A stretch of 64,000 bases of DNA, taken from assembly GCA_030647355.1 (NCBI GenBank), contig JAUSIS010000013.1:177165-241164 (forward strand). The letters are read 5' to 3'. The translations under genes were made by a program, and so were the position numbers. Position 1 is the stretch's first letter, and each line of letters begins with the position of its first letter. The DNA comes from a bacterium (GTDB taxonomy: Bacteria; Patescibacteriota; UBA1384; VFKW01). A model generated the notes under the pieces. That model saw nothing but the letters and a program-made list of their open reading frames with translations, searched no databases and was not told the origin of the DNA. Shown one piece after another: positions 3,369 through 62,261 of the stretch.

Positions 3369-3391
3369 CGTACTTCTTACTGCTTACTTTC

Positions 3392-3583
3392 TTACTGCTT
3401 ATCTTTGTAGCACTCGCATTCGCATTCACCGGTCGTGCAACATTTGCATTGGCACTGGCAGCGTTTCCCTAGATCGCAAACATTGCCTACATGCTCTAGT
3501 TTCTCGTCCACTTCCGGCTTTCTATTTCGCAAAAAGCCCAATATCTCATCCAATTTAGCCAGAATCTCCTCGTCTTTATCCAT
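3392..3583 (-). CDS. Small cysteine-rich protein (metallothionein-like or RiPP-precursor-like), 63 aa
   Basis: Strong SD (AGGAGG). Acidic helical N-terminal half (MDKDEEILAKLDEILGFLRN) then 11 Cys in the last 28 aa (CDLGKRCQCQCKCCTTGECECECY). 52 nt downstream of the VanW gene on the same strand. Confidence 0.5.
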   Translation of the reverse strand: MDKDEEILAKLDEILGFLRNRKPEVDEKLEHVGNVCDLGKRCQCQCKCCTTGECECECYKDKQ

Positions 3584-5744: not shown

Positions 5745-6170
5745 CTCTTCCTGCTCTAAAAACAGGATGTGCCTTAAAAAGACATCTCGCAAATTTATAA
5801 GCTTGGTCTCTTTTCCTTTTCTTCAAGATTGAAATATGGTGTTTGAGAGGTATCTCGGAGGCATACTCGCCTCCTTTCTCTAAAAAACGAAATATGCTTT
5901 ATTAAAGGTCTCTCGCAGGTGAAGCAAGCTCAGTCTTTCTCGGTCCCATTTCTCTTCCAACCAAGAAGAATGTTGTCTTTCGAGAGGTATCTCGTAGGTC
6001 GAGAGGGCAATCGTCACTTCTCCCCTTCTAAAAACAGAATATGCATTGAAAAGACATCTCGGAGGTTTGCAAGCTTGGTTCCGCCAGCCGGCGGATTGCA
6101 AACCGAGAGTAAGCGCCGTTTGCCGCTGGAGCAAACGGACGCGGTCTTTGAAAAGCATATCCTGTTTTAT
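5745..6170. repeat. Tandem array of about 145-bp imperfect repeats (about 2.5 copies plus one inverted partial copy) with a periodic GRYATCTCG motif
   Basis: Repeated blocks ctaaaaacagRatRtgcNttaaaaagacatctcgcaNN...aagcttgg and gaaatatggtgtttgagaggtatctcggagg...ctcctttctc. Core GRYATCTCGNAGG at 5781, 5849, 5906, 5986, 6053. Inverted copy of aaaacaggatatgc at 6141-6165. Confidence 0.7.
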
Positions 6171-6408: not shown

Positions 6409-6582
6409 GTTGACCTCCGTTACAAATCCAAAATTCGAATTTCAAATATCAAATCAATACCCAAGCCCAAAATCCAAATCTTGACATTTAGCCATTTGGG
6501 CTTCATTTGGCATTGAAAATTGGAAATTTGACATTAAATCTCCCTCAGTACTTATCAGCTTAATTCTTACCAGCTTATTAGC

Positions 6583-8595
6583 TTATTTCACTATAAACCT
6601 GACAATCAGCAGCGCCACAATATTCAACACCTTAATCATCGGATTGATCGCCGGACCGGCTGTATCTTTGTAAGGATCGCCAACCGTATCGCCCGTAACC
6701 GCCGCTTTGTGCGCTTCCGAACCTTTTCCGCCCAAATTACCTTCTTCAATGTACTTCTTGGCATTATCCCAAGCCGCCCCGCCAGTTGTCATCGAAATCG
6801 CTACAAACAAACCTGTTATAATCGCTCCGACCAGCATTCCACCCAGCGCCTGCGCGCCCAAGCCGAATCCAACGATAAACGGTGCCGCAATCGGTAACAA
6901 TGCCGGAAAAATCATCTCTCTTTGCGCCGCGGCAGTCACGATATCCACACATCTTGAATAATCCGGCTTTACCTTGCCTTCCATTATCCCTTTTCTCTCC
7001 TTAAACTGACGACGCACTTCCTGTACTACCGCACCGGCCGCTTTCCCCACCGCTTCCATCGAAAGCGCCCCAAAGAAGTAGGGGAGTAGTCCCCCGATAA
7101 ATAACCCGATCAATACTTTCGGTTCTTCAATCGAGAAACTAATGTGCTTGCCCATGTCGGCAATTTCTTGCGTATATGCAGAAAACAAGACAATCGCCGC
7201 CAATCCCGCCGAGGCAATAGCATAGCCCTTGGTTACCGCTTTGGTCGTATTGCCCACAGCATCCAGTGGATCCGTCACAGCCCGCACCTTATCACCCATC
7301 TCGGCCATCTCGGCAATTCCTCCGGCATTATCAGTAATCGGACCATAAGCATCAATCGCCACAATAATTCCTGTCATGGATAACATAGCAAACGCCGCTA
7401 CTGCCACTCCATATAATTCAGCCAAATTGTATGAAACCAAAACCCCAGCGGCAATCAGAAGGACCGGCCAGAAAGTCGATCTCATAGATAATGCCAAACC
7501 GGCAATAATATTCGTTCCATGCCCCGTAACTGACGCTTCCGCCACTTTCTGAACAGGTCTGTTCTTGGTAGATGTGTAATATTCGGTAATAATCACCATT
7601 CCTGCCGTCACTACCACGCCAACCAACGAACAATAGAACAGATCCATAACTGTCACGCCTTTCAAACCCTTCATCATCCAGTTTGTGATAGGGTAGAAAG
7701 CCGCAATGGCAATAACCGCCGAAACAATCAAGCCTTTATACAACGCTTTCATAATGTCATTATCTTTACCCAACCTGACAAAGAATGTCCCGATAACCGA
7801 AGCCAAAACTGATACCCCGCCCAAAGCTAGAGGATAGAGAACTGCATTCTCATTGTTTTTAAATAGTAAATTACCCAGTAACATCGCCGCTACAGCCGTC
7901 ACCACATAAGTTTCGAACAGATCAGCCGCCATACCCGCGTCATCTCCGACGTTATCGCCTACGTTATCGGCAATAACTGCCGGATTTCTTGGATCATCTT
8001 CCGGAATTCCCGCTTCCAATTTACCGACCAAATCAGCGCCGACATCGGCTGCTTTAGTATAAATTCCGCCTCCCAATCGAGCAAAAATAGAAATAAGCGA
8101 GGCTCCGAATGCCAAACCAATCAAACTCTTAACATCATGCGTAACAGAATAAAAAACCGTCACGCCAAGTAATGCCAAACCCGCTACCAGTAAACCAGTT
8201 ACAGCACCTCCGCGAAATGCCAAAGTTAAAGCTTGTCCTAAACCCTGTCTGGCTTTCTCGGCTGTCCTGACATTAGCTCTAACTGCTACATTCATGCCAA
8301 TATAACCGGCTGCTGCCGATAAAATCGCTCCCACGGCAAAGCCCCAAGCTGTTGTCCAGCCCAGTTGTTTGACAAAACCAATAACTAAAAATAATACTAA
8401 AGCTACCATCGCTACCACGCGATATTGACGATTCAAATATGCCGAAGCGCCCTGCTGAATCGCTAGTGCGATTTCCTGCATTTTCTTGTTGCCAGCATCT
8501 TGTGATAAAACCCAGCGAATTAAATAAACACCATACAAAATGGTGATAATTGAGGCACCGACTGCCAAACGAACAGGTGTAAGCCACTCTGGCAT
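6583..8595 (-). CDS. hppA: Membrane-bound proton/sodium-translocating pyrophosphatase
   Basis: 670 aa polytopic protein with hallmark H+-PPase motifs ([39 protein letters not shown]). Confidence 0.93.
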
Positions 8596-8961
8596 ACTGC
8601 TCCTTTCTTAATAAATCCAAATGGCAAAATCCTAATTTCCCAATCAAAATCCAAATTTGTAAAAGTCAAAAATTTGAACTTGGGGTTTGAACTTAATTCG
8701 GCATTTGCCATTAGAAATTTGAAATTCTATTATTTCCCCTTAAATTTACCAAAATATCGCTCATCTGTCAAACGCCTTCAATTGTCATTGCGAGGCAATG
8801 CCGAAGCAATCTTTCCTCCTCCACCAACACATGCAATTGATTTTTCCCGTTTTTTAATATAAAATCAACCCAGCCAATAAGAGTAAGGATTAATCCTTGC
8901 CGCCTGAGATCCTGGGATTTATTCCAGGACCAAATCCAGGTCAATTTGGAGGATTCGTACC

Positions 8962-9801
8962 TTGAAAGAGTTAGGTAAAAAGATCAGCGTACCGACACTC
9001 GTAGGAAGCTTCAGTTCTGACGGAGGCATTGCCGGCAAGAGCGTTCCGTTCACAATTCGAGATGAACGAGCTCGCGGTGGACTTATCGAGATTGACCTCG
9101 GGTATCTCGATCCCGGGATCAAGGAAAAACTATTCGCTCTACCCTGGGAAACCGACGACTACCTTGACTTCAACGGGGGACCCCAGATTAGATCCAGCCG
9201 CCGGGGAGAGTTCCAAACCACCGCCGCTCAACTTCTCGCTCTGATTGCTCCTTGCTGGGGTATGACAATCGAGAACATGTCAATCAATGACCCTCGACCG
9301 GAGCAATTCTTCGAAGAAGGTAAGACGCGTTTCCCATATGCAATCTCCGTCACACAGAAGATGCGAGAGGTGGTTATAGAAAGCCAACTCCGTCCACTAC
9401 TAATGGCTCTCTGCCAAGCAACACAACTTCTGCATTACTGCGACTCCATCCAGGACCCAGCAACTCCCCCGCAGAAGCACGACTTCGTCGTCGAGATCAT
9501 GAGGGACATTACGAGAGATCGGCACTTGATACCGTCCAATGATCGTGAGACTTTCAATGAACACTTCTTCCTTTGCGGAGAGAAAGTCAAGGTAGAGAAT
9601 GATCTGCATCACGATCTTGCATGTTGTGTCGCCGATTGGGATTCCAACCCATTCCCGGACGACAAGAGCAACCGAACCGTCGGGCATTTTCTGAGAACGG
9701 TGATCGAATGGCTGTGCCAGAGACACCACCTCGACTTCTCTCTATACCAAGCAGCTATCATCAATTACGCTGACTTGCTCGAAGCACTAAAGACCGACTA
9801 A
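8962..9801 (+). CDS. Hypothetical protein (TTG start)
   Basis: 279 aa, no recognisable domain. Good SD (ttggagga) 8 nt upstream of TTG. Followed by a strong terminator. Confidence 0.5.
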   Translation: MKELGKKISVPTLVGSFSSDGGIAGKSVPFTIRDERARGGLIEIDLGYLDPGIKEKLFALPWETDDYLDFNGGPQIRSSRRGEFQTTAAQLLALIAPCWGMTIENMSINDPRPEQFFEEGKTRFPYAISVTQKMREVVIESQLRPLLMALCQATQLLHYCDSIQDPATPPQKHDFVVEIMRDITRDRHLIPSNDRETFNEHFFLCGEKVKVENDLHHDLACCVADWDSNPFPDDKSNRTVGHFLRTVIEWLCQRHHLDFSLYQAAIINYADLLEALKTD

Positions 9802-9816
9802 GAACCCAGCCTCAAC

Positions 9817-9853
9817 GCCCCGCCCTTTCCCGGTAAAGAGCGGGGCTCTTTTT
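9817..9853 (+). terminator. Rho-independent terminator
   Basis: ccccgc...gcgggg stem followed by ctcttttt. Confidence 0.6.
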
Positions 9854-9861
9854 ATACCATC

Positions 9862-9905
9862 CACCAAGATCTCCAATATCACGATCCTCAAATAAACCCG
9901 TTTCT
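9862..9905 (-). pseudogene. Displaced remnant of the pyrB 3' end (att-like duplicate)
   Basis: atctccaatatcacgatcctcaaataaacccgttt is about 85-90% identical to 11798-11838 inside the pyrB C-terminal codons. Its reverse-complement translation KKRVYLRIVILEIL matches the pyrB C-terminus KNGLYLRMAILEML. Confidence 0.55.
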
Positions 9906-9996
9906 TCCTAAGTGTTGACCTAACTAAAAACTGCTATAAAATTAAGCCGAACAGCACCTTGACGTTTTAATCAATCCAACCTACGGAGGTCAACTC

Positions 9997-11724
9997 GTGA
10001 TTTACACCCTAACGAACAAGAATCCTGGTTTCCCCATCAGTGCCGCAATTATTGCTCAGATTGATGAGGAAAAAAGAGTCCGCCACACCCGCGAGATGAT
10101 TCTACTTTTCGGACTCGGCTCCCAGTTTGATCATCTTATCAAGCAGGAAATAGAAAAGCTGGGCGTCTTCTGTATGGTTGCCGACCCGGCCACTATCTCC
10201 TCTGATGATGTCAAGCAGGTAGCTCCCATCGGAATCATTTTGTCCGGCGGTCCCTCATCTGTTGTTGATGAACCGCCACCACTCGACAAGACCATTCTTG
10301 GACTGGGCATTCCTACCTTAGGCATCTGCCTGGGGCTGCAAGGAATTGCCCAGTATGTCGGCGCCGAAGTCACCTCCGCCTCGCAATCCCCCAGCGGTTA
10401 TCGCGAATTCGGCACCCACATCGCCACTATCACCGAAGACAGCTCATCGGTTAACGCCTTATTCCGTGGTTTGCCGCGGATGATGGATGTACTGGAGAGC
10501 CACGGCGACTGTGTTCAGCCGTCGCCTAAACTGACTATCTTGGCCACAACCGAGAATGCGCCGGTTGCCGCCGCTCGGGGCGCCGCTAAGGAGCATCAGC
10601 ACCTTTACGGTGTCCAGTTCCATCCCGAGGTGGAAGAGACCCAGTTCGGCAGCCGAATTCTGGCGAATTTCTGCTTTGGAGTTTGTGGCGCCAAGGAGAG
10701 TTTCCGGGCTCAGGATGAAGCGGAAATAAAAACCGAGTGGCTACGCCAAGAAATTGGCGATAAGCTTGTCGTTATTGGCCTGTCTGCCGGTTCTGATTCC
10801 TCAACCTGCGCCCATCTTGTCAAGAAAGCCTTGAATGACCAACCCGGACGCGTTCTCGGCGTCTACATTAAAGCTACCGATAGACCCGAAGATGAGGAAT
10901 TCGTCCGCCGGCACTTTGGCAATCAGGACTGGATTGAACTGAAGGTGGTGGATGCTACCTCTCAATTCCTGAAAGCTCTCCGTAACCAGCCGTGGTGGTG
11001 GCCATCTAAGTGGTGTCCGCTCCAGCGCCGCATTACCATGAAGCAGAAGCGCCGAGCGATGAAGCGCGTCTACCATCAAGTCCTTGAGGATGAGATCACT
11101 ATCTTCGCTGCCGCCAAGAACCGCCCACGTGACGAGGTTGTCATTATACAGGGAACCCTGTACACCGACCTTTGCGAAAGCGGCCATGGCTATAACACCG
11201 GTGCCCGTCGAGCCACCATCAAAGAGCACCACAATGTCGGCATTCCCTTCTCTGTTAAGGAGCTCTGTCCTCTGGATGACTGCGTCAAGGACAACGGCCG
11301 TAACATTGGTCGCGCCATCGGCGTGCCAGAGGAACTTTTAACGCGTCATCCCTTCCCCGGACCGGGATTAATAGTCCGGATTGAAGGCGAAGTGACCGCC
11401 GATAAGCTCCGTATTGCCCGCGCCGCCGATAAGATCTGGATAGACGAACTGCGCGATAAGGGCTTTTACCACAAGGTCTGGCAAGCCGGCGTCTTTGTAA
11501 CCCAGTCAGGTACAACCTGCACTAAGGGTGATGACGCCACTTCCGGTCTTGTTATTATCTTTTGGGCGGTGAATAGTACCAACGGCTTTACTGCCCGCGC
11601 TGCTGACCTTCCAATGTCTTTCCTTAGAAGGGTTAGTCAGCGCATGACTAACGAAATCCGTGAGGTGGGAGCGGCCGCATATCGAACTTCCGACAAACCG
11701 CCAACCACCATTGAATTCGGTTAA
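9997..11724 (+). CDS. guaA: GMP synthase (glutamine-hydrolysing), divergent
   Basis: 575 aa, GTG start with GGAGG SD. GATase-1 (GICLGLQ, FHPEV). PP-loop ATP pyrophosphatase with atypical LSAGSDSS. C-terminus DKPPTTIEFG matches the GuaA terminal KPPATIEWE motif. Higher GC than surroundings. Confidence 0.8.
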   Translation: MIYTLTNKNPGFPISAAIIAQIDEEKRVRHTREMILLFGLGSQFDHLIKQEIEKLGVFCMVADPATISSDDVKQVAPIGIILSGGPSSVVDEPPPLDKTILGLGIPTLGICLGLQGIAQYVGAEVTSASQSPSGYREFGTHIATITEDSSSVNALFRGLPRMMDVLESHGDCVQPSPKLTILATTENAPVAAARGAAKEHQHLYGVQFHPEVEETQFGSRILANFCFGVCGAKESFRAQDEAEIKTEWLRQEIGDKLVVIGLSAGSDSSTCAHLVKKALNDQPGRVLGVYIKATDRPEDEEFVRRHFGNQDWIELKVVDATSQFLKALRNQPWWWPSKWCPLQRRITMKQKRRAMKRVYHQVLEDEITIFAAAKNRPRDEVVIIQGTLYTDLCESGHGYNTGARRATIKEHHNVGIPFSVKELCPLDDCVKDNGRNIGRAIGVPEELLTRHPFPGPGLIVRIEGEVTADKLRIARAADKIWIDELRDKGFYHKVWQAGVFVTQSGTTCTKGDDATSGLVIIFWAVNSTNGFTARAADLPMSFLRRVSQRMTNEIREVGAAAYRTSDKPPTTIEFG

Positions 11725-11750
11725 CGACTACTAGACCTTTACCAACCAAC

Positions 11751-11775
11751 GGGGTGCATACGCACCCCTCTTTTT
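11751..11775. terminator. Bidirectional hairpin terminator between guaA and pyrB
   Basis: ggggtgcatacgcacccc followed by tcttttt. Confidence 0.6.
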
Positions 11776-11785
11776 ATTACTCGCT

Positions 11786-12706
11786 TTATCTTACCAACAT
11801 CTCCAATATCGCCATCCTCAAATAAAGCCCGTTTTTTGCCTGGCGAAAATACGCCGCTCTCTTGTCATGATCCACTTCGGGAGCAATTTCCGTTATACGC
11901 GGTAATGGATGCATAATAATCGCCTGTTTATTCAGCTTACGCAAGAGCGCTTTGTCTACCTGATAAACATCTTTCACCTGATTGTAGTCATTTTCCGAGG
12001 CAAACCGCTCTTTCTGTACTCGCGTCATATACAAAACATCAATCTTGCCTAAGATTTCTCCAAAATCCTGCAGTTCCCTGAACTTCACCCCTCTTGCCTG
12101 CATTTCTGCCCTTATCTTCTGGGGAACGGCCAGCCTCGGTGGAGAAATTAAAAAAAATTGACAACTTTTGTAAAGCATCGCCAAATTAAGTAGAGAATGG
12201 ACCGTCCTCCCGTATAGTAAATCGCCTACTAAAGCAATTCTGAGCCCCTCGATTTTCCCCAATTCCTTGCGCATAGTATAAAAATCCAGCAATGCTTGCG
12301 TCGGATGCTCACCCGCACCGTCTCCGGCATTGATAATTGGGACCTCGGAAACCCTTGCCGCCCTCCTGGCTGCTCCTTGAATGTAATGGCGCATAACAAT
12401 CGCATCGGCATACCCGTTAACAACCCTGATAGTATCCTCCAATGTCTCGCCTTTAGATGAAGAACCAAATTGGCCGGCATTCTCACTCGAGATTACCTTG
12501 GCGCCCAATTTTAATGCTGCCGTCTCAAAGGAGAACCGAGTACGGGTACTAGGTTCAAAAAAAAGACAGGCGATGACCTTGTCTTGTAACGGTTTGGGCA
12601 ATGTGCCGGCTTGATCCCATCTTTCCCATTCATCCGTTCTCTGGAATATTTCTTCCAACATCCGGCTATCCTTAAATTGGCCGGAACTCACTAGATGTTT
12701 AATCAT
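11786..12706 (-). CDS. pyrB: Aspartate carbamoyltransferase catalytic subunit
   Basis: 306 aa with STRTR carbamoyl-phosphate motif and HPTQ (ATCase rather than OTCase HPCQ). Confidence 0.9.
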   Translation of the reverse strand: MIKHLVSSGQFKDSRMLEEIFQRTDEWERWDQAGTLPKPLQDKVIACLFFEPSTRTRFSFETAALKLGAKVISSENAGQFGSSSKGETLEDTIRVVNGYADAIVMRHYIQGAARRAARVSEVPIINAGDGAGEHPTQALLDFYTMRKELGKIEGLRIALVGDLLYGRTVHSLLNLAMLYKSCQFFLISPPRLAVPQKIRAEMQARGVKFRELQDFGEILGKIDVLYMTRVQKERFASENDYNQVKDVYQVDKALLRKLNKQAIIMHPLPRITEIAPEVDHDKRAAYFRQAKNGLYLRMAILEMLVR

Positions 12707-12807
12707 ACTCCTCCTTAATGAAGATTATACATCGAGCCGTTTGCTTGTAAAGTACATGAAAAAAACCCGCCGGAAACCCGGCGGGCATGATAGTACATTG
12801 CTTAGGA

Positions 12808-13839
12808 TCAACTCCGACTGGGGATCTTCATATCCTCGGCCTGGTACTTCCTCAGTACCTTCCCGGTGATCATCGCTACGATTATGTCATACCGATCTTT
12901 CGTGTCGTAGATGACCTCATTCGGTACCTGCAGAGACTCCGCCACATAGGCCAGATGCTCCTCGTTTTCCGTGTCCAGGTTCTGCAGACCGACCCCCCAG
13001 GGCGTTCCGACCTCCCGTCCCCAGATTCTGACCGGCTCCTTGTCATAGAAGATCGGGTCGCGGCCCTCCTGAATTGCTGCCGCCAAACCCTCGTAAGTAG
13101 TGAACCGCGATGAATCCGGAGTGAGAACCTCATCTGCCACCTTGCCGTCGAAAGTGTTCTCAAACTTGGTGTCAAGAATGAGAATCCCGCGCTTAGCGGC
13201 ATACTCATAAGCTCTCTGGTAGATAGCCAGATCCATACTTGCCAAACGGCCGCCCTCAAACCCGGTGAGTTCAGCATACCGCTGAATCGTCACCGGCAAG
13301 TCATGGCCCTCTTCAGCTTTCGTCGTCGGCGTAAAGATCGGCCGGGGAAGCTTCTGCCACTTGGAAAGACCAGAAGGAAGGATATTGCCACAGGCAGTCC
13401 CGTCCTTCAGATAATCCTTCCAAACGGATCCGCCGATGTGCGCTCGGAAGATCATCTCGTACTTCCAGATCTTACATCTCTTCACCAGCAGGATGCGTTC
13501 CAACGGCAGCTCAGCGACATCCTTCATGTTCCAGCCGGCCGCTTTCCATCGCCCAACATTCCACCCCCAGGCAAGCAGGTGGTTCGGAATATCTTGGAAC
13601 ACCTGCGTCAGCCAGAAGTGAGTCAGCGCGATCAGCACTTCGCCCTTGCCCTGCACCAAACATGGCAGAACGAAATCGAAGATCGAAAGCCGGTCGGACC
13701 GCATCATCAGGAGCTGATCCGGCTTCCCGGGAATCTCGTACAGCTCTCCGACCTTACCGCGATACAGCAGGATGTAGCCAAGCTTAATCAGCTTGCGGCT
13801 AAACGAGCTCTCGGCTACCTTTTCCGGAATTCTGGACAT
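12808..13839 (-). CDS. purC: Phosphoribosylaminoimidazole-succinocarboxamide (SAICAR) synthase, long form
   Basis: LLYRGKVGELYEIPG...DRLSIFDFV...KGEVL...FW pattern of SAICAR synthetase. Start placed at MSRIPEK (13839) with an aaaggaaaag RBS; the ORF-track start at 13902 is an in-frame upstream Met. Confidence 0.85.
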   Translation of the reverse strand: MSRIPEKVAESSFSRKLIKLGYILLYRGKVGELYEIPGKPDQLLMMRSDRLSIFDFVLPCLVQGKGEVLIALTHFWLTQVFQDIPNHLLAWGWNVGRWKAAGWNMKDVAELPLERILLVKRCKIWKYEMIFRAHIGGSVWKDYLKDGTACGNILPSGLSKWQKLPRPIFTPTTKAEEGHDLPVTIQRYAELTGFEGGRLASMDLAIYQRAYEYAAKRGILILDTKFENTFDGKVADEVLTPDSSRFTTYEGLAAAIQEGRDPIFYDKEPVRIWGREVGTPWGVGLQNLDTENEEHLAYVAESLQVPNEVIYDTKDRYDIIVAMITGKVLRKYQAEDMKIPSRS

Positions 13840-14098
13840 CAGTCTTTTCCTTTCATTTCTATCGTTCAGATTTACCGCAAAACAACAAAGAGTCGCCATC
13901 AACTCCTTGTCATATCATTCACCAGCAGATTATCACATATCTTAAAATCTGACAATCCAATTATTATTAATATCTTCTTCACAATTAAAAGAATCCGATG
14001 AACTCTTTTTAGTATCAAATAATCAACCTCACTAATCTCTAGAAAACTTATCCAGCCCAAATTCACCTTAATTAAGGCAACAATTTTATTCTAATCCT

Positions 14099-14380
14099 TT
14101 ATCTATCAGGCAGCACCGCCTTTAGACCCAATTTAGTTTCAATATTTTTCACCCGCTCTTCCAAAATATAATAATCAGCTTTATGCACCATTTCCGTCAT
14201 TTTGAAATCATGCGCCACTTGGGACCTCTTAAGTAATTCAAATTGCCCATCGTGCTCTTCAAGCTTTTTATGGACACGTCCAAACTCCTTTGCCGTCATC
14301 ACTGCCAAATTACCGACCTCCCTTTCAACAACCTCTCCAACTACGCCCTTGATTTGTCTTAGATCATCCTTAGTCAACAT
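14099..14380 (-). CDS. Hypothetical small protein
   Basis: 93 aa charged, predicted helical. No recognisable family. Confidence 0.35.
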   Translation of the reverse strand: MLTKDDLRQIKGVVGEVVEREVGNLAVMTAKEFGRVHKKLEEHDGQFELLKRSQVAHDFKMTEMVHKADYYILEERVKNIETKLGLKAVLPDR

Positions 14381-14490
14381 TTTGCCTCCGTGTAGTTATT
14401 ATTAATCTCCAACTATCCGCTGTCAATACACATAAGCAGCCGACAATTGAGCTTGGACTCTAAAATTTTTTACTTTTTCATTTCCACTTT

Positions 14491-15624
14491 TTACTTTTGG
14501 AGATTTACCGCTTCCTCATAAACCCGCAAAGTCTCGCTCGCCATCTTTCGCCAAGAATATTTCTTCACTTGCTCTTTACCCAACTGAACCAATTCATCGC
14601 GCCTATTTTTATTATTAATTAACTTATCTAAAACCCGGGCTATGTTATGCGGATCCCTCGGGTCAAAATACTCCGCCGCATCCTGCAAAACCTCCGGCAT
14701 GCAGGAAGTATTCGATGTCGCTACCGGCACCCCCGCCGCCATCGCCTCTAAATGAGTCAAACAAAAACCTTCATACAAAGAAGCCAAAACATAAATCATT
14801 GCCCCGTCATAGATCGCCGGCAAATCTTCCTCCGGAATAAACCCCGTCATCACCACCCCGCCAACCTTTTTCCTGACCTCCTCGGCTTTGGCAATTATTT
14901 CCGGAAAATCAACATTCTGCTTACCACCGATAACTAAATTAATCTCATCTTCATATTGCTCTTTCAAAATCTCATAAGCCTCCAAAAGTGGAATAATGCC
15001 CTTATGCGGCCGCCATTGGCTGATAAACAACAAATATGGTTCTTGTATTTTATACTGACCCAAAATTTCTTTCCTTATTTTTTCATTTGTCTTTCCGTCA
15101 TACTCACTATCAACCGCTTCGTAAGTTACCACTACGTCGTCTGGCTTTGCCCCCAACATCCTCACCACATCCTCTTTTGAAGCCACCGACGGCACGATCA
15201 CTTTCCTTGCCGATCTTGCCGCATGTTTCATAATGTAATCATAAGCCAATTTCCTGATTGGATTTTTTTGCTTCCTGCCCACCGGATACAGACTCATGAT
15301 CAGATCATGTATAGTCACCACAAAAGGCGTCTTGGAAAAAATCGGATGATTAAAATTCGTATAATGAATCAAGTCTAGCTTTTCTCTTTCGATAATTTTC
15401 CCGAATTTCCTCTGCTCATCCAAAGAATAATGGATTATATCCGCCTTCACCGCCTTAAAATTCTCTGCCGGCTGCACCCATTCCTTCATGTCATCACCAG
15501 TTAAGAAAACTACATATTCATTTTTTTTGTCAATCACCGCCAGCTCGTTTATCAATCCGCGCGTATACCGCCCGATTCCCCCCGTTTCCTTTCTGTACAT
15601 TCTGGCATCAATCCCTATTCTCAT
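14491..15624 (-). CDS. Glycosyltransferase family 4 (GT-B, group 1)
   Basis: 377 aa. MRIGIDARMYRKETGGIGRYTRGL N-terminus. C-terminal sugar-nucleotide-binding E..E region typical of GT4. Confidence 0.85.
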   Translation of the reverse strand: MRIGIDARMYRKETGGIGRYTRGLINELAVIDKKNEYVVFLTGDDMKEWVQPAENFKAVKADIIHYSLDEQRKFGKIIEREKLDLIHYTNFNHPIFSKTPFVVTIHDLIMSLYPVGRKQKNPIRKLAYDYIMKHAARSARKVIVPSVASKEDVVRMLGAKPDDVVVTYEAVDSEYDGKTNEKIRKEILGQYKIQEPYLLFISQWRPHKGIIPLLEAYEILKEQYEDEINLVIGGKQNVDFPEIIAKAEEVRKKVGGVVMTGFIPEEDLPAIYDGAMIYVLASLYEGFCLTHLEAMAAGVPVATSNTSCMPEVLQDAAEYFDPRDPHNIARVLDKLINNKNRRDELVQLGKEQVKKYSWRKMASETLRVYEEAVNLQK

Positions 15625-15700
15625 ATCTCTCCTCCTTGTCTTTAGATTATTGGATTGGTTCGCACTTACAGGTACAACCCTTGCCTATGAAGTGAGTCAA

Positions 15701-15744
15701 AGCGTAGTGCCGTCCGAGTTGCTTGCAACCAGGACAAAACGCTC
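15701..15744 (-). promoter_or_regulatory. Conserved 5'-UTR hairpin motif (copy 1), about 77 nt upstream of the GT4 start
   Basis: agcgtagtgccgtccgagttgcttgcaaccaggacaaaacgctc. Near-identical to 55676-55722 upstream of rfbD. Outer AGCGU/ACGCU stem enclosing a GTTGC...GCAAC hairpin. Confidence 0.4.
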
Positions 15745-15782
15745 ACTGAATAGGTATATATCTGACTAGCACTCAAACTTTA

Positions 15783-15811
15783 TTAGCAAATCCGACAAAT
15801 TAGACTATAAT
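15783..15811 (+). promoter_or_regulatory. Sigma70-like promoter for the gtrB-like operon
   Basis: TTAGCA-N17-TATAAT about 45 nt upstream of the 15855 ATG. Confidence 0.4.
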
Positions 15812-15854
15812 CTAGCTGCCTTCATTCTAACACTAAATCAACCATCGAGGAATT

Positions 15855-16811
15855 ATGCCAAAAACAAGCCCTACTTTAGCCATCATCGTTCCATGCTTTA
15901 ACGAGCAGGCGATTTTAGATGACTCAATAACTAAACTGCTCCAAGAGTTAAAAAACCTCATTTCTCAAAAAAAAATAAATTCACACAGCTTTCTTTACCT
16001 TGTAAACGATGGCAGCCAGGACAAAACGCAAAAGATTATTGAAAAAACCCATGCTAAATACCCGTCCAAAGTAAGAGGATTAACTTTCTCTCGTAATTTT
16101 AGCCACCAAAATGCCATTCTAGCCGGTCTTTCCAAGTGTAGCCATAAAGCCGATATTTTTCTCACTATAGATGCCGACCTGCAAGATGATATTACTGTTA
16201 TCGGCAAATTCATTGACGCCTATCTGGAAAAAAATGAAATCGTCTATGGTGTCAGAAAAGACAGAAAAACCGACTCTTATTTTAAAAAAACCACCGCCCA
16301 AACATTTTACAAATTGATGCATCTGATGGGAGTGGAAATAATCTACAACCACGCCGACTATCGTCTAATAAGCCAAAGAGCCCTAGATGAATTGGAAAAA
16401 TTTCAGGAAGTTAATCTATTTCTTCGGGGTATATTCCCACTTCTCGGCTTCAAAAATAAGATCATCCATTACAACCGGCAAAACCGACAAAATGGCAAAT
16501 CAAAATACTCTCTATCGAAGATGCTCTCCCTTACTCTGGACGGAATAACTTCATTTAGTATCAAACCGCTCCGCTTAGTTACTTGGGTGGGATTTTTAAT
16601 TTTTCTTTTTTCACTCATCATGAGCATCTGGGTGATTATTGATAAACTATTCATTGGCCACACCGTGAGCGGCTGGGCATCTACTGTCCTGCCGATCTAT
16701 TTCATCGGCGGCATCCAAATTCTATCCATTGGTATAATCGGCGAATATCTGGGTAAAATATACCGGGAAGTCAAGCACCGCCCGCCATTTATTATCGAAA
16801 AAGAGTTATGA
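15855..16811 (+). CDS. GT2 polyprenyl-phosphate sugar transferase (GtrB/ArnC-like)
   Basis: 318 aa. GT-A fold (IIVPCFNE, NDGSQD, DADLQDD) plus two C-terminal TM helices. Overlaps the downstream GtrA gene. Confidence 0.85.
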   Translation: MPKTSPTLAIIVPCFNEQAILDDSITKLLQELKNLISQKKINSHSFLYLVNDGSQDKTQKIIEKTHAKYPSKVRGLTFSRNFSHQNAILAGLSKCSHKADIFLTIDADLQDDITVIGKFIDAYLEKNEIVYGVRKDRKTDSYFKKTTAQTFYKLMHLMGVEIIYNHADYRLISQRALDELEKFQEVNLFLRGIFPLLGFKNKIIHYNRQNRQNGKSKYSLSKMLSLTLDGITSFSIKPLRLVTWVGFLIFLFSLIMSIWVIIDKLFIGHTVSGWASTVLPIYFIGGIQILSIGIIGEYLGKIYREVKHRPPFIIEKEL

Positions 16812-17218
16812 ACCATCAGAAGCTTAACAGTTCATTTACTCGATTCATTATTGTTGGTGTAATCAACAACGCCATAGACTTTGGCCTACTTAATTTACTC
16901 CATCTTGCATTTCAGTTAAATCTCTACTGGGCAATCAATATTAGCTTTTCCGCATCAACCATCAATAGCTATTTTCTCAATCGCCACTGGACATATCAAT
17001 ACAAATCAAACCAAAAAGACCACCTTAAAAAAATCAGCCAATTCTTCTTTGTTAGTATAGTTGGGTTACTCATGAACAACGGCATAATCTACTTCGTCAC
17101 TAACCAAACTAACCTAAACTACAATTATGGAAAAATTATCGCCACAGTACTTGTAGTTCTGTGGAATTATTCAATCAACAAATCCTGGACTTTCAAAAGT
17201 CCCCGCCAATCTATATAA
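16808..17218 (+). CDS. GtrA-family membrane protein (polyprenyl-P-sugar translocation)
   Basis: 136 aa, 4 TM. FTRFIIVGVINNAIDFGLLNLL is the GtrA signature. Translationally coupled (ATGA) to the GtrB-like gene. Confidence 0.8.
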   Translation: MNHQKLNSSFTRFIIVGVINNAIDFGLLNLLHLAFQLNLYWAINISFSASTINSYFLNRHWTYQYKSNQKDHLKKISQFFFVSIVGLLMNNGIIYFVTNQTNLNYNYGKIIATVLVVLWNYSINKSWTFKSPRQSI

Positions 17219-17237
17219 TCACTGGGTAGGAGTTTTC

Positions 17238-18560
<1,323 letters not shown>

Positions 18561-18664
18561 ACCTCCGTTGTTTTTTAGTAAAATCGCTGCGACTTTACTG
18601 AGCGGTTGACTTTCTCAAGATCGTCAAGTAAAATCCAAATAGAACATAAAAAATAAAATATATG

Positions 18665-18800
18665 TCTTATCAAGAGTGACGCTAGGGAATTGGCCCAGTG
18701 ATCGTCCAGCAACCTTAAATCTAGTAGCTTATATGCTTACTGCTTACCAGCTTACTAACTTATTCGGTGCTAAATCCAAGCCCCAGAGGCAAGATAATAC
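18665..18800 (+). promoter_or_regulatory. SAM-I (S-box) riboswitch in the metK leader
   Basis: tcttatcaagag / gctagggaattggcccagtgatcgtccagcaacc / ggtgctaaatcc / gataa match the SAM-I consensus P1-P2-P3 and P1 closing. The P3 loop carries a copy of the cttactgcttaccagcttac dispersed repeat. Confidence 0.75.
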
Positions 18801-18804
18801 ACTC

Positions 18805-18827
18805 AGCGCCTCACGGCGCCTTTTTAA
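18805..18827 (+). terminator. Riboswitch expression-platform terminator
   Basis: gcgcctcacggcgcc hairpin then ttttt, 30 nt before the metK ATG. Confidence 0.6.
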
Positions 18828-18856
18828 AAATAACAAATTAAGTAAAGGAGCAAAAA

Positions 18857-20023
18857 ATGGAAAGAACACTTTTTACGTCTGAATCGGTTACAGAGGGACA
18901 CCCCGACAAAATGGCTGACCAAATTTCCGATGCGTTGCTTGATGCCCTTCTGGAAAAAGATGAAAAATCCAGGGTGGCAATCGAAACGCTTCTTACTAAT
19001 GGAGTCTGTATCATTGCCGGAGAAGTCACTACCAACGCCTATGTAGATATGGCAAAAATCGCCCGCAAAGTAATCAAGGAAATTGGTTACAATGGCTGCG
19101 GCTTCCATCATGAAACAAGCGGAGTCATGACAGCCATTAAAGAGCAATCTTCCGATATTGCCCAAGGTGTTGACAGCTATGTCAAAACTGAAAGCGGTAA
19201 GATCGTCAGAGAAGATCTCGAGCATCTGGGCGCCGGCGATCAAGGATTAATGTTCGGATACGCCTGCAATGAAACGCCCGAGCTGATGCCCCTGCCAATA
19301 ATTCTCGCTCAACGGCTATGTCAAAAATTAGCATCCGTACGTAAAAAAGGGACTATTACCGGCTTAAGACCAGACGGTAAATCGCAAGTTACCATCGAGT
19401 ACGTTGACGACAAACCAAGCAGAATCCACACTGTACTCATTGCCGCCCAGCACGACCCATATAAAGACATCAAAAAACTCCGCAAAGAAATAACCGATAA
19501 AGTCATTAATCCCGTGCTAAAATCTTATGGACATCGGATAGATTCAAAAACCAAGATTTATATCAACACAACCGGCAAATTTGTCATTGGCGGACCGGAA
19601 GGCGACACCGGCTTGACCGGCCGTAAAATCATCGTTGACACTTACGGCGGCTATGCTCGGCATGGCGGAGGCGCTTTCTCGGGCAAGGATCCGTCCAAAG
19701 TTGACCGCTCCGGCGCCTATGCCGCCAGATGGGTAGCCAAAAGCATCGTCGCTTCGGGATTAGCCGAAAAATGCGAGGTTCAATTGGCTTATGCTATAGG
19801 TAAACCGGAACCGCTTTCTATCTATGTTAATACTTTCCAAACTAGTAAAAAGACTGACGAAGAAATAATTAAAAAAATCTCTGACAACTTCGACTTAAGG
19901 CCTGGCATGATTATCAAAAACTTAGGACTAAGACGCCCGTTATACCGCCAGTGTGCCGCTTATGGCCACTTTGGTCGTCCGGAACTAAACCTCCCATGGG
20001 AAAAAGCTAAAAAAATTAGATAG
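18857..20023 (+). CDS. metK: S-adenosylmethionine synthetase
   Basis: 388 aa. [13 protein letters not shown] and [16 protein letters not shown] motifs. RBS aaaggag. Confidence 0.95.
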
Positions 20024-20150
20024 CTTAATTCTTACCGCTTATTGCTTACCAACTTACTCCCAGTCATTGCGAGGCCTCAGCCGTGGCAAACCCCCCATAT
20101 CCTTCGAGCCCGGTCGAGAAGCTCTTCTTAATTCTTACTGCTTATTTCAC
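20024..20150. repeat. Composite dispersed repeat (family A ends plus family B core)
   Basis: cttaattcttaccgcttattgcttacc at each end of a cagtcattgcgaggcctcagccgtggcaaa...gagcccggtcgagaagctcttc core. About 95% identical to the copy at 22040-22160. Confidence 0.6.
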
Positions 20151-22039: not shown

Positions 22040-22160
22040 TCTTATTTCTTACCAGCTTACTCCCAGTCATTGCGAGGCCTCAGCCGTGGCAATCCCCCCC
22101 ATATTCTTCGAGCCCGGTCGAGAAGCTCTTCTTACTACTTACTAGCTTATTGCTTACTAG
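22040..22160. repeat. Composite dispersed repeat, second copy
   Basis: cagtcattgcgaggcctcagccgtggcaatccccccc...gagcccggtcgagaagctcttc flanked by cttaYttcttac...gcttattgcttac motifs. Confidence 0.6.
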
Positions 22161-22177: not shown

Positions 22178-23581
22178 ATGTCACTACCCGCCAAGTCAAA
22201 GGACTACAAAGTCGCCGACCTCTCGTTACACGAGTGGGGTCGAAAAGAAATTGAATCAGCCGAAAAAGAGATGCCAGGACTGATGGCTCTCCGCCAAGAA
22301 TATGGCTCCCAAAAGCCCCTGAAGAGCGCTAGGATAGCCGGTTGCCTGCATATGACTATTCAGACTGCTGTTTTAATTGAAACCCTCTTAGAGCTCGGCG
22401 CAGAAGTTCGCTGGTCCAGTTGCAATATCTTCTCCACTCAAGACCATGCTGCTGCTGCCATTGCCAAAAAAGATATACCTGTTTTTGCCTGGAAAGGTGA
22501 AACAGAAGAAGATTATTGGTGGTGCATCGAGCAAACCCTAAAATTCCCAACCAACCCCTCCGTCATTGCGAGGAACTCCTCTTCCGTCATTGCAAAAGCC
22601 TTTAGCCCCGGACTCGATCCGGGGGAAGAGAAGCAATCTTCCCAAGGTCCCAACATGATCCTCGACGACGGCGGAGACTTAACACTGCTCGTTCACGAAA
22701 AACACCCTGAACTTCTCAAGGACATCATCGGCGTCTCCGAAGAAACAACTACCGGAGTTCACCGGCTTTATCAGATGATGGAAGCGAAAACTTTGAAAAT
22801 GGCCGCCATAAATGTGAATGATTCGGTCACCAAATCAAAATTTGACAATAAATACGGCTGCCGCGAATCTCTCGCCGATGGCATCAAACGCGCAACCGAT
22901 ATCATGATTGCCGGAAAAGTAGTTGTTATCGCCGGTTATGGCGATGTCGGCAAAGGCTGTGCCCAGAGCATGCGCGGCTACGGCGCCCGAGTTATTATCA
23001 CAGAAATCGATCCGATAATTGCCCTGCAAGCAGCCATGGAAGGCTTTGAAGTTCTCACGATGGATCAAGCCGCCGAGATAGGGGACATATTTGTCACCGC
23101 CACGGGCTGCTGTGATGTTATAACTGGTAAGGATTTGGGAAAGATGAAAGACGGCGCAATAGTCTGCAACATCGGACATTTTGATAGCGAAATAGATGTC
23201 AAATGGCTGGAAGATCAAAAAGACATCAAGGAAGAAAACATAAAACCCCAAGTTGATCGGTTTATTTGGCCAAACGACAAATCAATTACCTTACTCTCCC
23301 GCGGCCGTCTCGTCAATTTAGGCAATGCCCACGGCCATCCCAGCTTCGTCATGAGCACCTCCTTCACCAATCAAACGCTCGCCCAGATCGCCCTCTACAC
23401 CGAGAGCAGAAAATACGAAAAAGGAAAAGTTTACACTCTTCCCAAAGAATTAGATGAAAAAGTCGCCCGCCTCCACCTCGACAAGCTCGGCGTCAAATTA
23501 ACTAAGCTTACTAAAAAACAAGCCGACTACCTAGGCATCCCCCAAGACGGCCCTTTCAAACCCGATTCCTATCGTTATTAG
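22178..23581 (+). CDS. ahcY: Adenosylhomocysteinase with a 33-aa in-frame repeat insertion
   Basis: Start at [26 protein letters not shown] (the ORF-track start at 22070 reads through the upstream repeat). NAD-binding [11 protein letters not shown]-terminus ...KPDSYRY. Insertion [33 protein letters not shown] between the conserved LKF and [10 protein letters not shown]. Confidence 0.92.
22550..22648 (+). repeat. Family-B palindromic repeat inserted in-frame inside ahcY
   Basis: 99 nt: two gtcattgc half-sites, palindrome ccccggactcgatccgggg and gaagagaagcaatc. Related to the intergenic gtcattgcgagg...gaagcaatc copies. Length is a multiple of 3 with no stop. Confidence 0.6.
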
Positions 23582-23616
23582 CTTAATTCTTACCGCTTAC
23601 GAGCTTATTGCTTATA

Positions 23617-23650
23617 TTTGCCCCTACAAACCCGACTCCTACCACTATTA
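23617..23650 (+). pseudogene. Short remnant copy of the ahcY terminal codons
   Basis: gcccctacaaacccgactcctaccactattaa versus the genuine 3' end ggccctttcaaacccgattcctatcgttattag (about 80% identity), 36 nt after the real stop and separated from it by a family-A repeat. Confidence 0.4.
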
Positions 23651-23737
23651 ACAATTGTTACTTGGGAATGAATTCCCCTCAATCCTTACTAGCGGCCTAT
23701 AGCCAAGACCACTGAAAAACTTACCCCATAGTAGTCA

Positions 23738-26076: not shown

Positions 26077-26289
26077 AAGATTACATGGGATTTATCAGCT
26101 AATTAGCTTATCCCACCTGCAGAACCCCGCTAAAGGCGGTAGCCACTTATTAGCTTACAAGCTTATTGCATATTAATATTATCGTTCGAGGCCAGGCCGA
26201 GAACTTAACCTTTTAGTTCTCGATTCTCTTCGATCTCTCGAACAATATTCTATTCTTAATCCTTACAATCTTACCAGCTTATCGCTTGC

Positions 26290-26408
26290 CGGCTCGTAAT
26301 CATCTCGACAAACTCGGCGTCAAGCTAACAAAATTAACCAATAAACAAGCCGACTACCTCGGCCTCCCCGTAGGTGGCCCATATAAAAGTGATAATTACC
26401 GATACTAG
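26290..26408 (+). pseudogene. Displaced copy of the ahcY 3' end, about 2.7 kb downstream of the intact gene
   Basis: Translates to [35 protein letters not shown], against the genuine AhcY C-terminus [35 protein letters not shown]. About 75% nucleotide identity. No upstream ahcY body. Confidence 0.65.
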
Positions 26409-58133: not shown

Positions 58134-58277
58134 ATTTTCCTTTCTGACTCAAATTTTCTTTACTTCGAGTTTGCATAGCCCTTCCTCATCATTGCGAGCG
58201 TAATGTGGCAATCTTTCCCTTTCCCAACTTACTTCTTACTGCTTATTGCTTAATTCTTACTAACTTGCCGGCCTTTC

Positions 58278-60852: not shown

Positions 60853-60888
60853 CTGACCCTGTCCTCTGCCACCTGTCTTCTGGATTTG

Positions 60889-60975
60889 CGGTGAGGGTGG
60901 GATTCGAACCCACGGAGCCCTTACGAGCTCAACATCTTAGCAGGATGCTGCCTTCAACCTCTCGGCCACCTCACC
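60889..60975 (-). tRNA. tRNA-Ser (anticodon GCU), class II with long variable arm
   Basis: Reverse complement GGTGAGGTGGCCGAGAGGTTGAAGGCAGCATCCTGCTAAGATGTTGAGCTCGTAAGGGCTCCGTGGGTTCGAATCCCACCCTCACCG. Anticodon loop CT-GCT-AA, GTTCGAATC T-loop. No encoded CCA. Confidence 0.85.
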
Positions 60976-61980
60976 ATATGAATCCAAATACTTCTTAATA
61001 TGTTTAGGATTGTGACTTCCTATTTCTTGAAAATATTTTCTAACATCCTTGGTATCATACAATCTTAAATCTCCACGACAATCTACCTTAGGATGAATAC
61101 CAATCTGCTCTAAAATTATCTTGACCGATTCTATCAAATTCACTGACCGTGAGCTAAATCCTATTTTATAATAAATGTATTGCTTACCTCTCACGGAATA
61201 TCTATGCTTGTACACACATCCATCTGTATCAACCAACCCCCTAACACAAGCTAACGAATATTTCATATCCTTCTTGATCCATTCCGGAATATCAATTTGA
61301 TGTTTAACCTTATTACCCTTAACCAATCCATTCTTTAATAAATACGCTACTAAATTTTTTCTAGAAACCTGAATATTTACTACGGAATTTCGAATTATTT
61401 CGCTGGGCTGAATTCTAAAAAGTTTTATCATCAATTGACAAACATATTTTGCATATTCCCGATCGTCAACCCGATTTAAAGTGATTGTAACCTGATAATC
61501 TGTAATTCCACCATCACCAATCAGTATCCCAAACATTTCTGCTAAATTCACACTTTTTTTGGGGAACAAGACTATTTTTGGACAGCTTATGCTATTTGTC
61601 GAAAAACGCCCTTTGGTTAGCCACCATTCCTCCCACCCTTTTCTCCTTTTCTCCGGATCAGTACAAATTGTTCCATATTTTCTGATTGTTGTCTCTGCAC
61701 CTAATCGGGCAGCTTTTTTTGTTGACCAAAAAGCCGGACGAATTTCAACATCATCTGGTATTTTTATTCCCATATGGCTAACCAACTTATCAACCGCCTT
61801 CTCCGTCATCGAAAAACGCTCCCTCTTCCAATCTGTCAAAGTCCGAACTCCAACTTCGCAGAATACAGACAATTCTAAATTTGACCCAAACACACCCATT
61901 GCTCTGTTTAAAAACTCTGCCTGCTTCCCCTTTAGGAATAACACGCGATTAGAATAATCTTTTTTAATCAATTCCGCCAT
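60937..61980 (-). CDS. LAGLIDADG-family homing endonuclease (double-motif)
   Basis: 347 aa. Two LAGLIDADG motifs (FGILIGDGG and VRGLVDTDGCV). The 3' end overlaps the 5' half of tRNA-Ser(GCU) by 39 nt. Confidence 0.8.
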   Translation of the reverse strand: MAELIKKDYSNRVLFLKGKQAEFLNRAMGVFGSNLELSVFCEVGVRTLTDWKRERFSMTEKAVDKLVSHMGIKIPDDVEIRPAFWSTKKAARLGAETTIRKYGTICTDPEKRRKGWEEWWLTKGRFSTNSISCPKIVLFPKKSVNLAEMFGILIGDGGITDYQVTITLNRVDDREYAKYVCQLMIKLFRIQPSEIIRNSVVNIQVSRKNLVAYLLKNGLVKGNKVKHQIDIPEWIKKDMKYSLACVRGLVDTDGCVYKHRYSVRGKQYIYYKIGFSSRSVNLIESVKIILEQIGIHPKVDCRGDLRLYDTKDVRKYFQEIGSHNPKHIKKYLDSYGEVAERLKAASC

Positions 61981-62171: not shown

Positions 62172-62261
62172 TGGCGGAGAGTGCAGGATTCGAACCTGCG
62201 AGAGTCTCTCGACCCTTCTGGTTTTCAAGACCAGCGCCATCAACCACTCGGCCAACTCTCC
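62172..62261 (-). tRNA. tRNA-Ser (anticodon UGA), class II, CCA encoded
   Basis: Reverse complement GGAGAGTTGGCCGAGTGGTTGATGGCGCTGGTCTTGAAAACCAGAAGGGTCGAGAGACTCTCGCAGGTTCGAATCCTGCACTCTCCGCCA. Anticodon loop CT-TGA-AA. Confidence 0.85.

Follow-up and report, generated by a model that had tools for sequence, protein, structure and literature searches.

A decayed copy of the pyrB 3' end beyond guaA, most likely the scar of a gene insertion, in a genome of the Patescibacteriota

We analysed a stretch of 64,000 nucleotides (nt) from a bacterium of the Patescibacteriota (UBA1384; VFKW01), positions 177,165 to 241,164 of the forward strand of contig JAUSIS010000013.1 in assembly GCA_030647355.1 (the window, in whose own numbering all positions are given), and focus on the locus at which guaA, a purine gene, lies beside pyrB. 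The intact pyrB (11786..12706, minus strand, 306 amino acids (aa)) and guaA (9997..11724, plus strand, GTG start, predicted to encode a Patescibacteria-type glutamine-hydrolysing GMP synthase of 575 aa) converge, and beyond guaA lies a second, decayed version of the end of pyrB. The two versions form a direct repeat on the plus strand of the window, with copy A at 9863-9909 and copy B, the 3' end of pyrB itself, at 11793-11841, displaced from each other by 1.93 kb. A preliminary description had placed this repeat at 9866-9905 and 11798-11838, which is correct if slightly narrow, and its geometry holds: an intact pyrB is followed by a self-contained guaA unit and then by a displaced, decayed 3' end in the same orientation.

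Aligned on the pyrB coding strand, the copies agree at 41 of 48 columns, with 6 substitutions and one 1-nt gap (85% identity), each substitution being either synonymous or BLOSUM-non-negative. No identical run exceeds 13 nt, the next longest being 12 nt, and the mismatches are evenly scattered. Copy B (minus strand) is the functional 3' end of pyrB (...AKNGLYLRMAILEMLV) and encodes a C-terminus typical of the family. Copy A (minus strand) corresponds to pyrB codons ~290-304, is frameshifted at the Leu294 codon and lacks the last two codons and the stop, the loss of which had already been noted; a 10-nt indel in the alignment accounts for the missing stop codon. Across this indel the alignment extends into a common terminator tail, CTCTTTTTAT (9846-9909 versus 11768-11841), so that homology may reach left to 9846. 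On the other side, similarity to pyrB stops abruptly at 9909, with nothing further beyond. Copy A falls within no open reading frame (ORF) of at least 50 aa and is unstructured (fold z = 0.06), and the repeat region returns nothing from Rfam at E ≤ 1. A degenerate 28-nt pattern with up to 3 mismatches is found at exactly two sites in the 64 kb, copies A and B (0.00 expected from 100 shuffles), and the local alignment scores 65, compared with 34 for the best of 20 shuffled queries. No third copy of the pyrB tail, as a sign of tandem accretion, was found by local alignment on either strand of the window. Within the window, the match is thus not the common repeat that had been considered as an alternative. 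Over window positions 7978-20082 (12.1 kb), the independent Logan assembly of SRR13727527 has exactly the same sequence (100% identity), and because this contig from a second assembler is identical, the repeat is not an artefact of the metagenome assembly.

Between copies A and B lies a complete guaA unit, consisting of a promoter-like site, a ribosome-binding site, a 575-codon ORF and a terminator. The promoter-like site (9915..9942, plus strand; TTGACC-16-TAAAAT), a consensus match only with 10 of 12 positions agreeing, begins 5 nt past the end of copy A, and a putative ribosome-binding site, GGAGG (9985..9989, plus strand), was read from the sequence 7 nt upstream of the GTG start. We take the GTG at 9997 as the start because homologues align from residue 1. 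The predicted intrinsic terminator of guaA, T2 (11751..11777, plus strand), has a stem and a TCTTTTTATT tail (fold −14.9 kcal/mol, z = −5.5); it would be a weak terminator for pyrB, because on the minus strand the stem is trailed only by GUUGGUUGG. The product matches the Pfam families GATase, NAD_synthase and GMP_synt_C above their cutoffs and scores just below the cutoff of the NCBIfam equivalog NF000848 (389.7 versus 400), and the motifs GICLG and HPE are conserved. From its domains it is predicted to be a class-I GATase-type GMP synthase with a PP-loop ATP pyrophosphatase and a C-terminal domain. It carries four lineage-specific insertions, and its PP-loop reads SAGSDS, where the family mostly has SGGSDS (85 of 120) or SGGTDS (28 of 120); SAG variants number 3 of 120, the present protein included. 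The public annotation (P0121) lists a 516-aa 'gamma-glutamyl-gamma-aminobutyrate hydrolase family protein' that lacks the first 59 residues. On the basis of homology, this can be corrected to a 575-aa GMP synthase that starts at GTG 9997.

To the left, outside the repeat bracket, lies ORF279 (8962..9801, plus strand), an orphan gene followed by its predicted intrinsic terminator, T1 (9817..9855, plus strand; stem and CTCTTTTTAT tail, from a consensus scan; fold −18.7 kcal/mol, z = −3.3). Among 5.8 billion clusters ORF279 finds only itself, and it has no match in Pfam, NCBIfam, PHROG or PADLOC. Its AF2 model, made from the single sequence, is uninformative (pLDDT 38.8); its GC content is 0.51 and its codon usage atypical. 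The leftmost gene of the locus encodes an H+-PPase (6583-8595, minus strand). To the right, pyrB has its own promoter-like site (12751-12724), and purC (12808-13902, minus strand) lies beyond it. The pyrB product is a full-length aspartate carbamoyltransferase (TIGR00670, 344.7 bits versus a cutoff of 236.95), its tail agrees with the family consensus, and in codon usage the gene resembles the rest of the window (distance 0.176).

The same arrangement is found at ahcY (22178-23581), where two displaced copies of the 3' end lie downstream of the gene and form a series that is a clearer and stronger parallel to the pyrB scar in the same window. The longer copy (26292..26408, plus strand; 38 codons and a stop; tblastn E = 7e-18) lies 2.8 kb downstream of the gene, with a PDC-S01/DUF4143 ATPase and a HicA toxin encoded in between. 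The shorter relic (23622..23651, plus strand) encodes PYKPDSYHY, 9 codons and a stop, and lies 41 nt past the ahcY stop. The longer copy differs from ahcY at 33 positions, distributed 7/6/20 over the three codon positions (chi-square p = 0.004), and 15 of its 23 changed codons are synonymous. Because the differences are mostly at third positions, the longer copy is the tail of another, once-functional allele and not a decayed duplicate. The two ahcY remnants differ in length and begin at different codons. In addition, an intergenic repeat of ~105 nt (left copy 20037..20141, plus strand; right copy 22041-22146; ~95% identical) brackets a pfkB kinase gene, orf90 and AbiEii between metK and ahcY. 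This bracket splits what appears to be a methionine-cycle gene pair. Together, the ahcY remnants and the ~105-nt bracket, which we found more informative than any other result, point to recurrent insertion beside conserved genes in the source genome.

Several short repeats also mark the intergenic regions of the window. Tandem heptamer arrays of the form CTTAnnn give 20 matches in 10 clusters (3376-3401, 6551-6587, 18728-18764, 20024-20048, 20127-20144, 22041-22051, 22131-22156, 23582-23614, 26247-26283 and 58228-58259), all intergenic and all on the plus strand whatever the gene orientation, with 0 on the minus strand (~2 expected). They lie directly beside the stop codons of metK, ahcY, AbiEii and the H+-PPase gene, and a triple-heptamer pattern occurs 7 times in the window versus 0 times in 2.16 Mb of other loci compared. 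A candidate array in the pyrB stop region was rejected (score 26, inside the shuffle range), as was a generic four-heptamer pattern in viral contigs, for which the matches are unrelated tandem repeats. The motif GTCATTGCGAG is enriched (8 matches versus 0.7 expected; 8784, 20063, 22066, 22562, 23734, 23800 on the minus strand, and 58188), forms an inverted pair at 23734/23800 and lies both in the repeat units and in regions around junctions, the intergenic stretch upstream of ORF279 among them. Between VanW and the H+-PPase gene there is a 53-nt direct repeat (5755-5807 and 6027-6079), 83% identical and 272 nt apart.

Next to pyrB, guaA is so far peculiar to this lineage. In the collections searched there is no close relative: neither pyrB nor guaA has a match of more than 64% identity, and ORF279 has no homologue. 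Nor does the repeat pattern occur in viral contigs or in JGI metagenome contigs. A profile search of genome contigs with pyrB gave, among the matches listed, 80 pyrB loci, a broad bacterial sample that includes neither a close relative nor the source genome itself, and in 0 of these 80 does guaA lie within 6 kb of pyrB. Conversely, pyrB is near guaA in none of the guaA loci of the Patescibacteria type, metagenomic ones included. The nearest guaA homologues adjoin prs and the nearest pyrB homologues have other neighbours; two loci with an H+-PPase gene near pyrB have it in the opposite orientation with tig between, and are uninformative. The adjacency thus appears to be lineage-specific, because it is absent from all sampled genomes, which are distant, and this is consistent with rearrangement or insertion. 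The nearest pyrB homologues come from Patescibacteria mixed with DPANN archaea (Nanoarchaeota, Woesearchaeota, Micrarchaeota and Aenigmarchaeota) at the same 55-60% identity, which hints that the present pyrB type may be shared between domains.

That guaA is a divergent, foreign gene, as had been proposed, finds little in its favour. It is 59-64% identical to its nearest aligned homologues, all of the Patescibacteria type, and is not unusually divergent for the lineage, because pyrB is equally distant from its own (55-61%). The GC content of guaA is indeed raised, at 0.542 in a window of 0.406, with a third-position GC (GC3) of 0.59 (about 2.2 standard deviations above). This excess is not unique to it: purC has 0.542, the purF-like gene 0.546, ORF279 0.51 and ahcY 0.486, and in the two nearest guaA loci from other Patescibacteria, too, no gene is richer in GC than guaA. 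We therefore rejected GC and codon usage as a decisive sign of foreign origin, since the same excess is seen in other conserved enzymes of the window and in guaA orthologues elsewhere. Composition is compatible with import of guaA and does not establish it. A viral origin was also rejected: full-length identity to relatives in IMG/VR does not exceed 35%, and one 86-residue fragment reaches 56%. The most atypical codon usage in the window belongs to purC (distance 0.73, GC3 0.68). Positions 1-24000 carry conserved enzymes of nucleotide metabolism and the methyl cycle (pyrG, the purF-like gene, guaA, pyrB, purC, metK and ahcY) at a GC of 0.45-0.55, and positions 24000-64000 form a polysaccharide and glycosyltransferase region at 0.30-0.43, well below the first ~24 kb.

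As expected from the preliminary description, machinery for mobility is missing near the locus: none of the ORFs tested in the 64 kb gives a Pfam match to integrase, transposase or recombinase domains. The cassette holds no integrase, its cargo being guaA only, and the neighbouring ORF279 is uncharacterised. The locus also lacks the hallmarks of transposons and insertion sequences, with a repeat of 48-64 nt, no inverted repeats found at the cassette ends and no transposase. It shares with integrative elements that direct repeats bracket the insert and that pyrB is kept full length by the adjacent tail. An identical crossover core of an attachment (att) site was not found, the longest identical run being 13 nt, and an old event could have erased such a core. 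No genes for DNA uptake or RecA were seen in the window, which covers 64 kb of the 241,868-bp contig and in which no search was aimed at them. The only nuclease-like ORF is LAGLIDADG-like (60937-61980, minus strand) and lies between two tRNA-Ser genes (60888-60975 and 62172-62261), with its predicted 3' end overlapping the first of them.

Most probably, the decayed repeat of the last ~16 pyrB codons is a scar left when guaA came to lie beside pyrB. As the mechanism we tentatively favour displacement of the 3' end (the C-terminus) without an element-encoded integrase, through homology-facilitated illegitimate recombination or a two-step equivalent. Imported DNA carrying its own pyrB tail and an adjacent guaA unit would have paired through homology with the conserved body of pyrB and would have been joined illegitimately within the tail of the resident gene. 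This would have separated pyrB from ORF279 and T1, until then its neighbours, with the guaA unit in between. Of the two versions of the final ~16 codons, one would have stayed on the gene and kept pyrB intact, and the other, displaced by 1.93 kb, would have decayed as non-coding DNA through a frameshift and loss of the stop. We infer the direction of the event, the arrangement in the donor and the recombination pathway, and we favour 3'-end displacement because no integrase is found despite several events, the remnants are unequal and the ahcY remnant shows coding-type divergence. At both pyrB and ahcY, moreover, an intact gene is followed by new DNA and then by an orphan 3' fragment in the same orientation, as such displacement would leave them. 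Four observations weigh against this reading. The 3' part of pyrB is the GC-poorest of the gene (0.435, versus 0.54 for guaA), so that co-transfer from one donor is not suggested; the conservative pattern of substitutions at pyrB is not significant (p = 0.06-0.10; few sites); the presumed donor arrangement, with guaA convergent on pyrB, occurs in no sampled genome, all of which are distant; and both boundaries of the repeat are fairly sharp, which would also fit a circular intermediate.

Site-specific integration, the interpretation first put forward for this locus, would have a tyrosine or serine integrase insert an element into the 3' end of pyrB and supply the tail, with the integrase and the rest of the element later deleted, or with a cis-mobilisable remnant served in trans. 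Direct repeats that bracket a compact cargo, sharp boundaries and a reconstituted pyrB are what it predicts, cargo typical of mobile DNA (PDC-S01 ATPase, HicA and AbiEii) lies in the neighbouring brackets, and there is a precedent in e14, whose integration leaves a 163-bp pseudo-icd duplicate (PMC6379469). We nevertheless consider it unlikely. The 64 kb contain at least three bracketed segments and yet no integrase domain, the cargo consists of one gene of housekeeping type, and the mismatches between copies A and B are even and do not resolve into a core and a diverged arm, no identical block exceeding 13 nt. One fixed att core does not fit at ahcY either, because the remnants there span 9 and 39 codons and start at different ones. 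The true decay of copy A, with its 1-nt frameshift and the 10-nt indel that took the stop, would fit an illegitimate insertion of guaA with a long target duplication of ~48-64 nt, made for example by fill-in of a staggered break or by template switching, after which two initially identical copies diverged as A decayed neutrally and B stayed under selection. The codon-position pattern at pyrB, which is not significantly non-random, agrees with this, and the terminator tail seems to be part of the duplicated block, so that each of the two plus-strand genes ends up with a U-tract. On the other hand, a divergence of ~13% would mean that a streamlined genome kept useless DNA for a long time, the ahcY parallel is clearly at odds with decay from an identical duplicate and we know of no characterised mechanism for duplications of this length, which makes the explanation improbable in our judgement.

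Two further explanations dispense with an insertion at this point. If copy A were the last vestige of a second pyrB, a paralogue or xenologue between ORF279 and guaA that was removed by deletion, the same end state would result, namely a 3' fragment with its downstream flank and an abrupt truncation at 9909. This would require two pyrB genes in a reduced genome and a deletion that ended 5 nt before a working promoter, and it leaves the recurrence of the pattern at ahcY unexplained; we regard it as very unlikely. The idea that the resemblance arose by chance, or reflects a functional motif common to both sites (a regulatory site or a structured RNA, for example), has only the position just upstream of the guaA promoter to recommend it. 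Shuffled sequences reach scores of at most 34 and 0 chance matches are expected, the region has no Rfam match, no structure and no palindrome, and the similarity tracks the pyrB reading frame, all of which makes this account extremely improbable.

Among known systems, the closest to the favoured 3'-end displacement are the Rhs and type VI secretion system effector loci, at which C-terminal (3'-end) displacement is attributed to homology-facilitated illegitimate recombination (PMC5361080, citing Jackson et al. 2009). There, too, an intact gene is followed by orphaned fragments of its own earlier tail in the same orientation and new cargo arrives without a mobility gene, and the ahcY remnants likewise form a series. 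The anchors here differ in being core metabolic enzymes, pyrB and ahcY, instead of polymorphic toxins; the pyrB remnant is only ~16 codons long, and the pathway here is a presumed one. The elements e14 and phage 21 integrate into the 3' end of icd in Escherichia coli (PMC6379469, citing Hill et al. 1989). As presumed for the insert at pyrB, e14 supplies a slightly different replacement 3' end with conservative tail changes and leaves the old end as a pseudogene fragment at the far att site. Unlike the present locus, it encodes an integrase and has defined att cores, neither of which was found here, and its duplicate is 163 bp versus 48-64 nt; the cargo here is one housekeeping-type gene.

Two other systems resemble the locus in part. 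Streptococcal cis-mobilizable elements (CIMEs) and other decayed integrative elements target the 3' ends of conserved genes and have att-like direct repeats and cargo without an integrase, as at pyrB. In CIMEs the att sites stay recognisable and match those of the cognate integrative and conjugative element exactly, whereas for the pyrB-guaA locus no cognate element or integrase is known. The minimal mobile elements of Neisseria are whole-gene cassettes that are swapped between conserved flanks by transformation and recombination without mobility genes, and they are defined by polymorphism between strains; to our knowledge they leave no duplicated gene ends, unlike the pyrB locus.

A broader and decidedly speculative proposal, which we think has little chance of being right, is a lineage-specific exchange of cassettes without an element-encoded integrase. 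It would comprise at least three bracketed segments (guaA; pfkB with AbiE; PDC-S01 with HicA) whose junctions carry strand-specific CTTAnnn arrays and GTCATTGCGAG hairpins, and these might act as portable homology or as recognition sites for a trans-acting recombinase, moving genes of core nucleotide metabolism and defence in a reduced genome.

The scar at pyrB is physical evidence of how a streamlined, uncultured genome of the Patescibacteria type gains a core purine gene, or relocates it, next to a conserved gene, with no mobile-element machinery that can be recognised. When the ahcY remnants are considered as well, insertion in this lineage seems to recur at the 3' ends of genes for conserved enzymes. 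Where culture is impossible, remnants of gene tails moreover provide datable markers of horizontal exchange.

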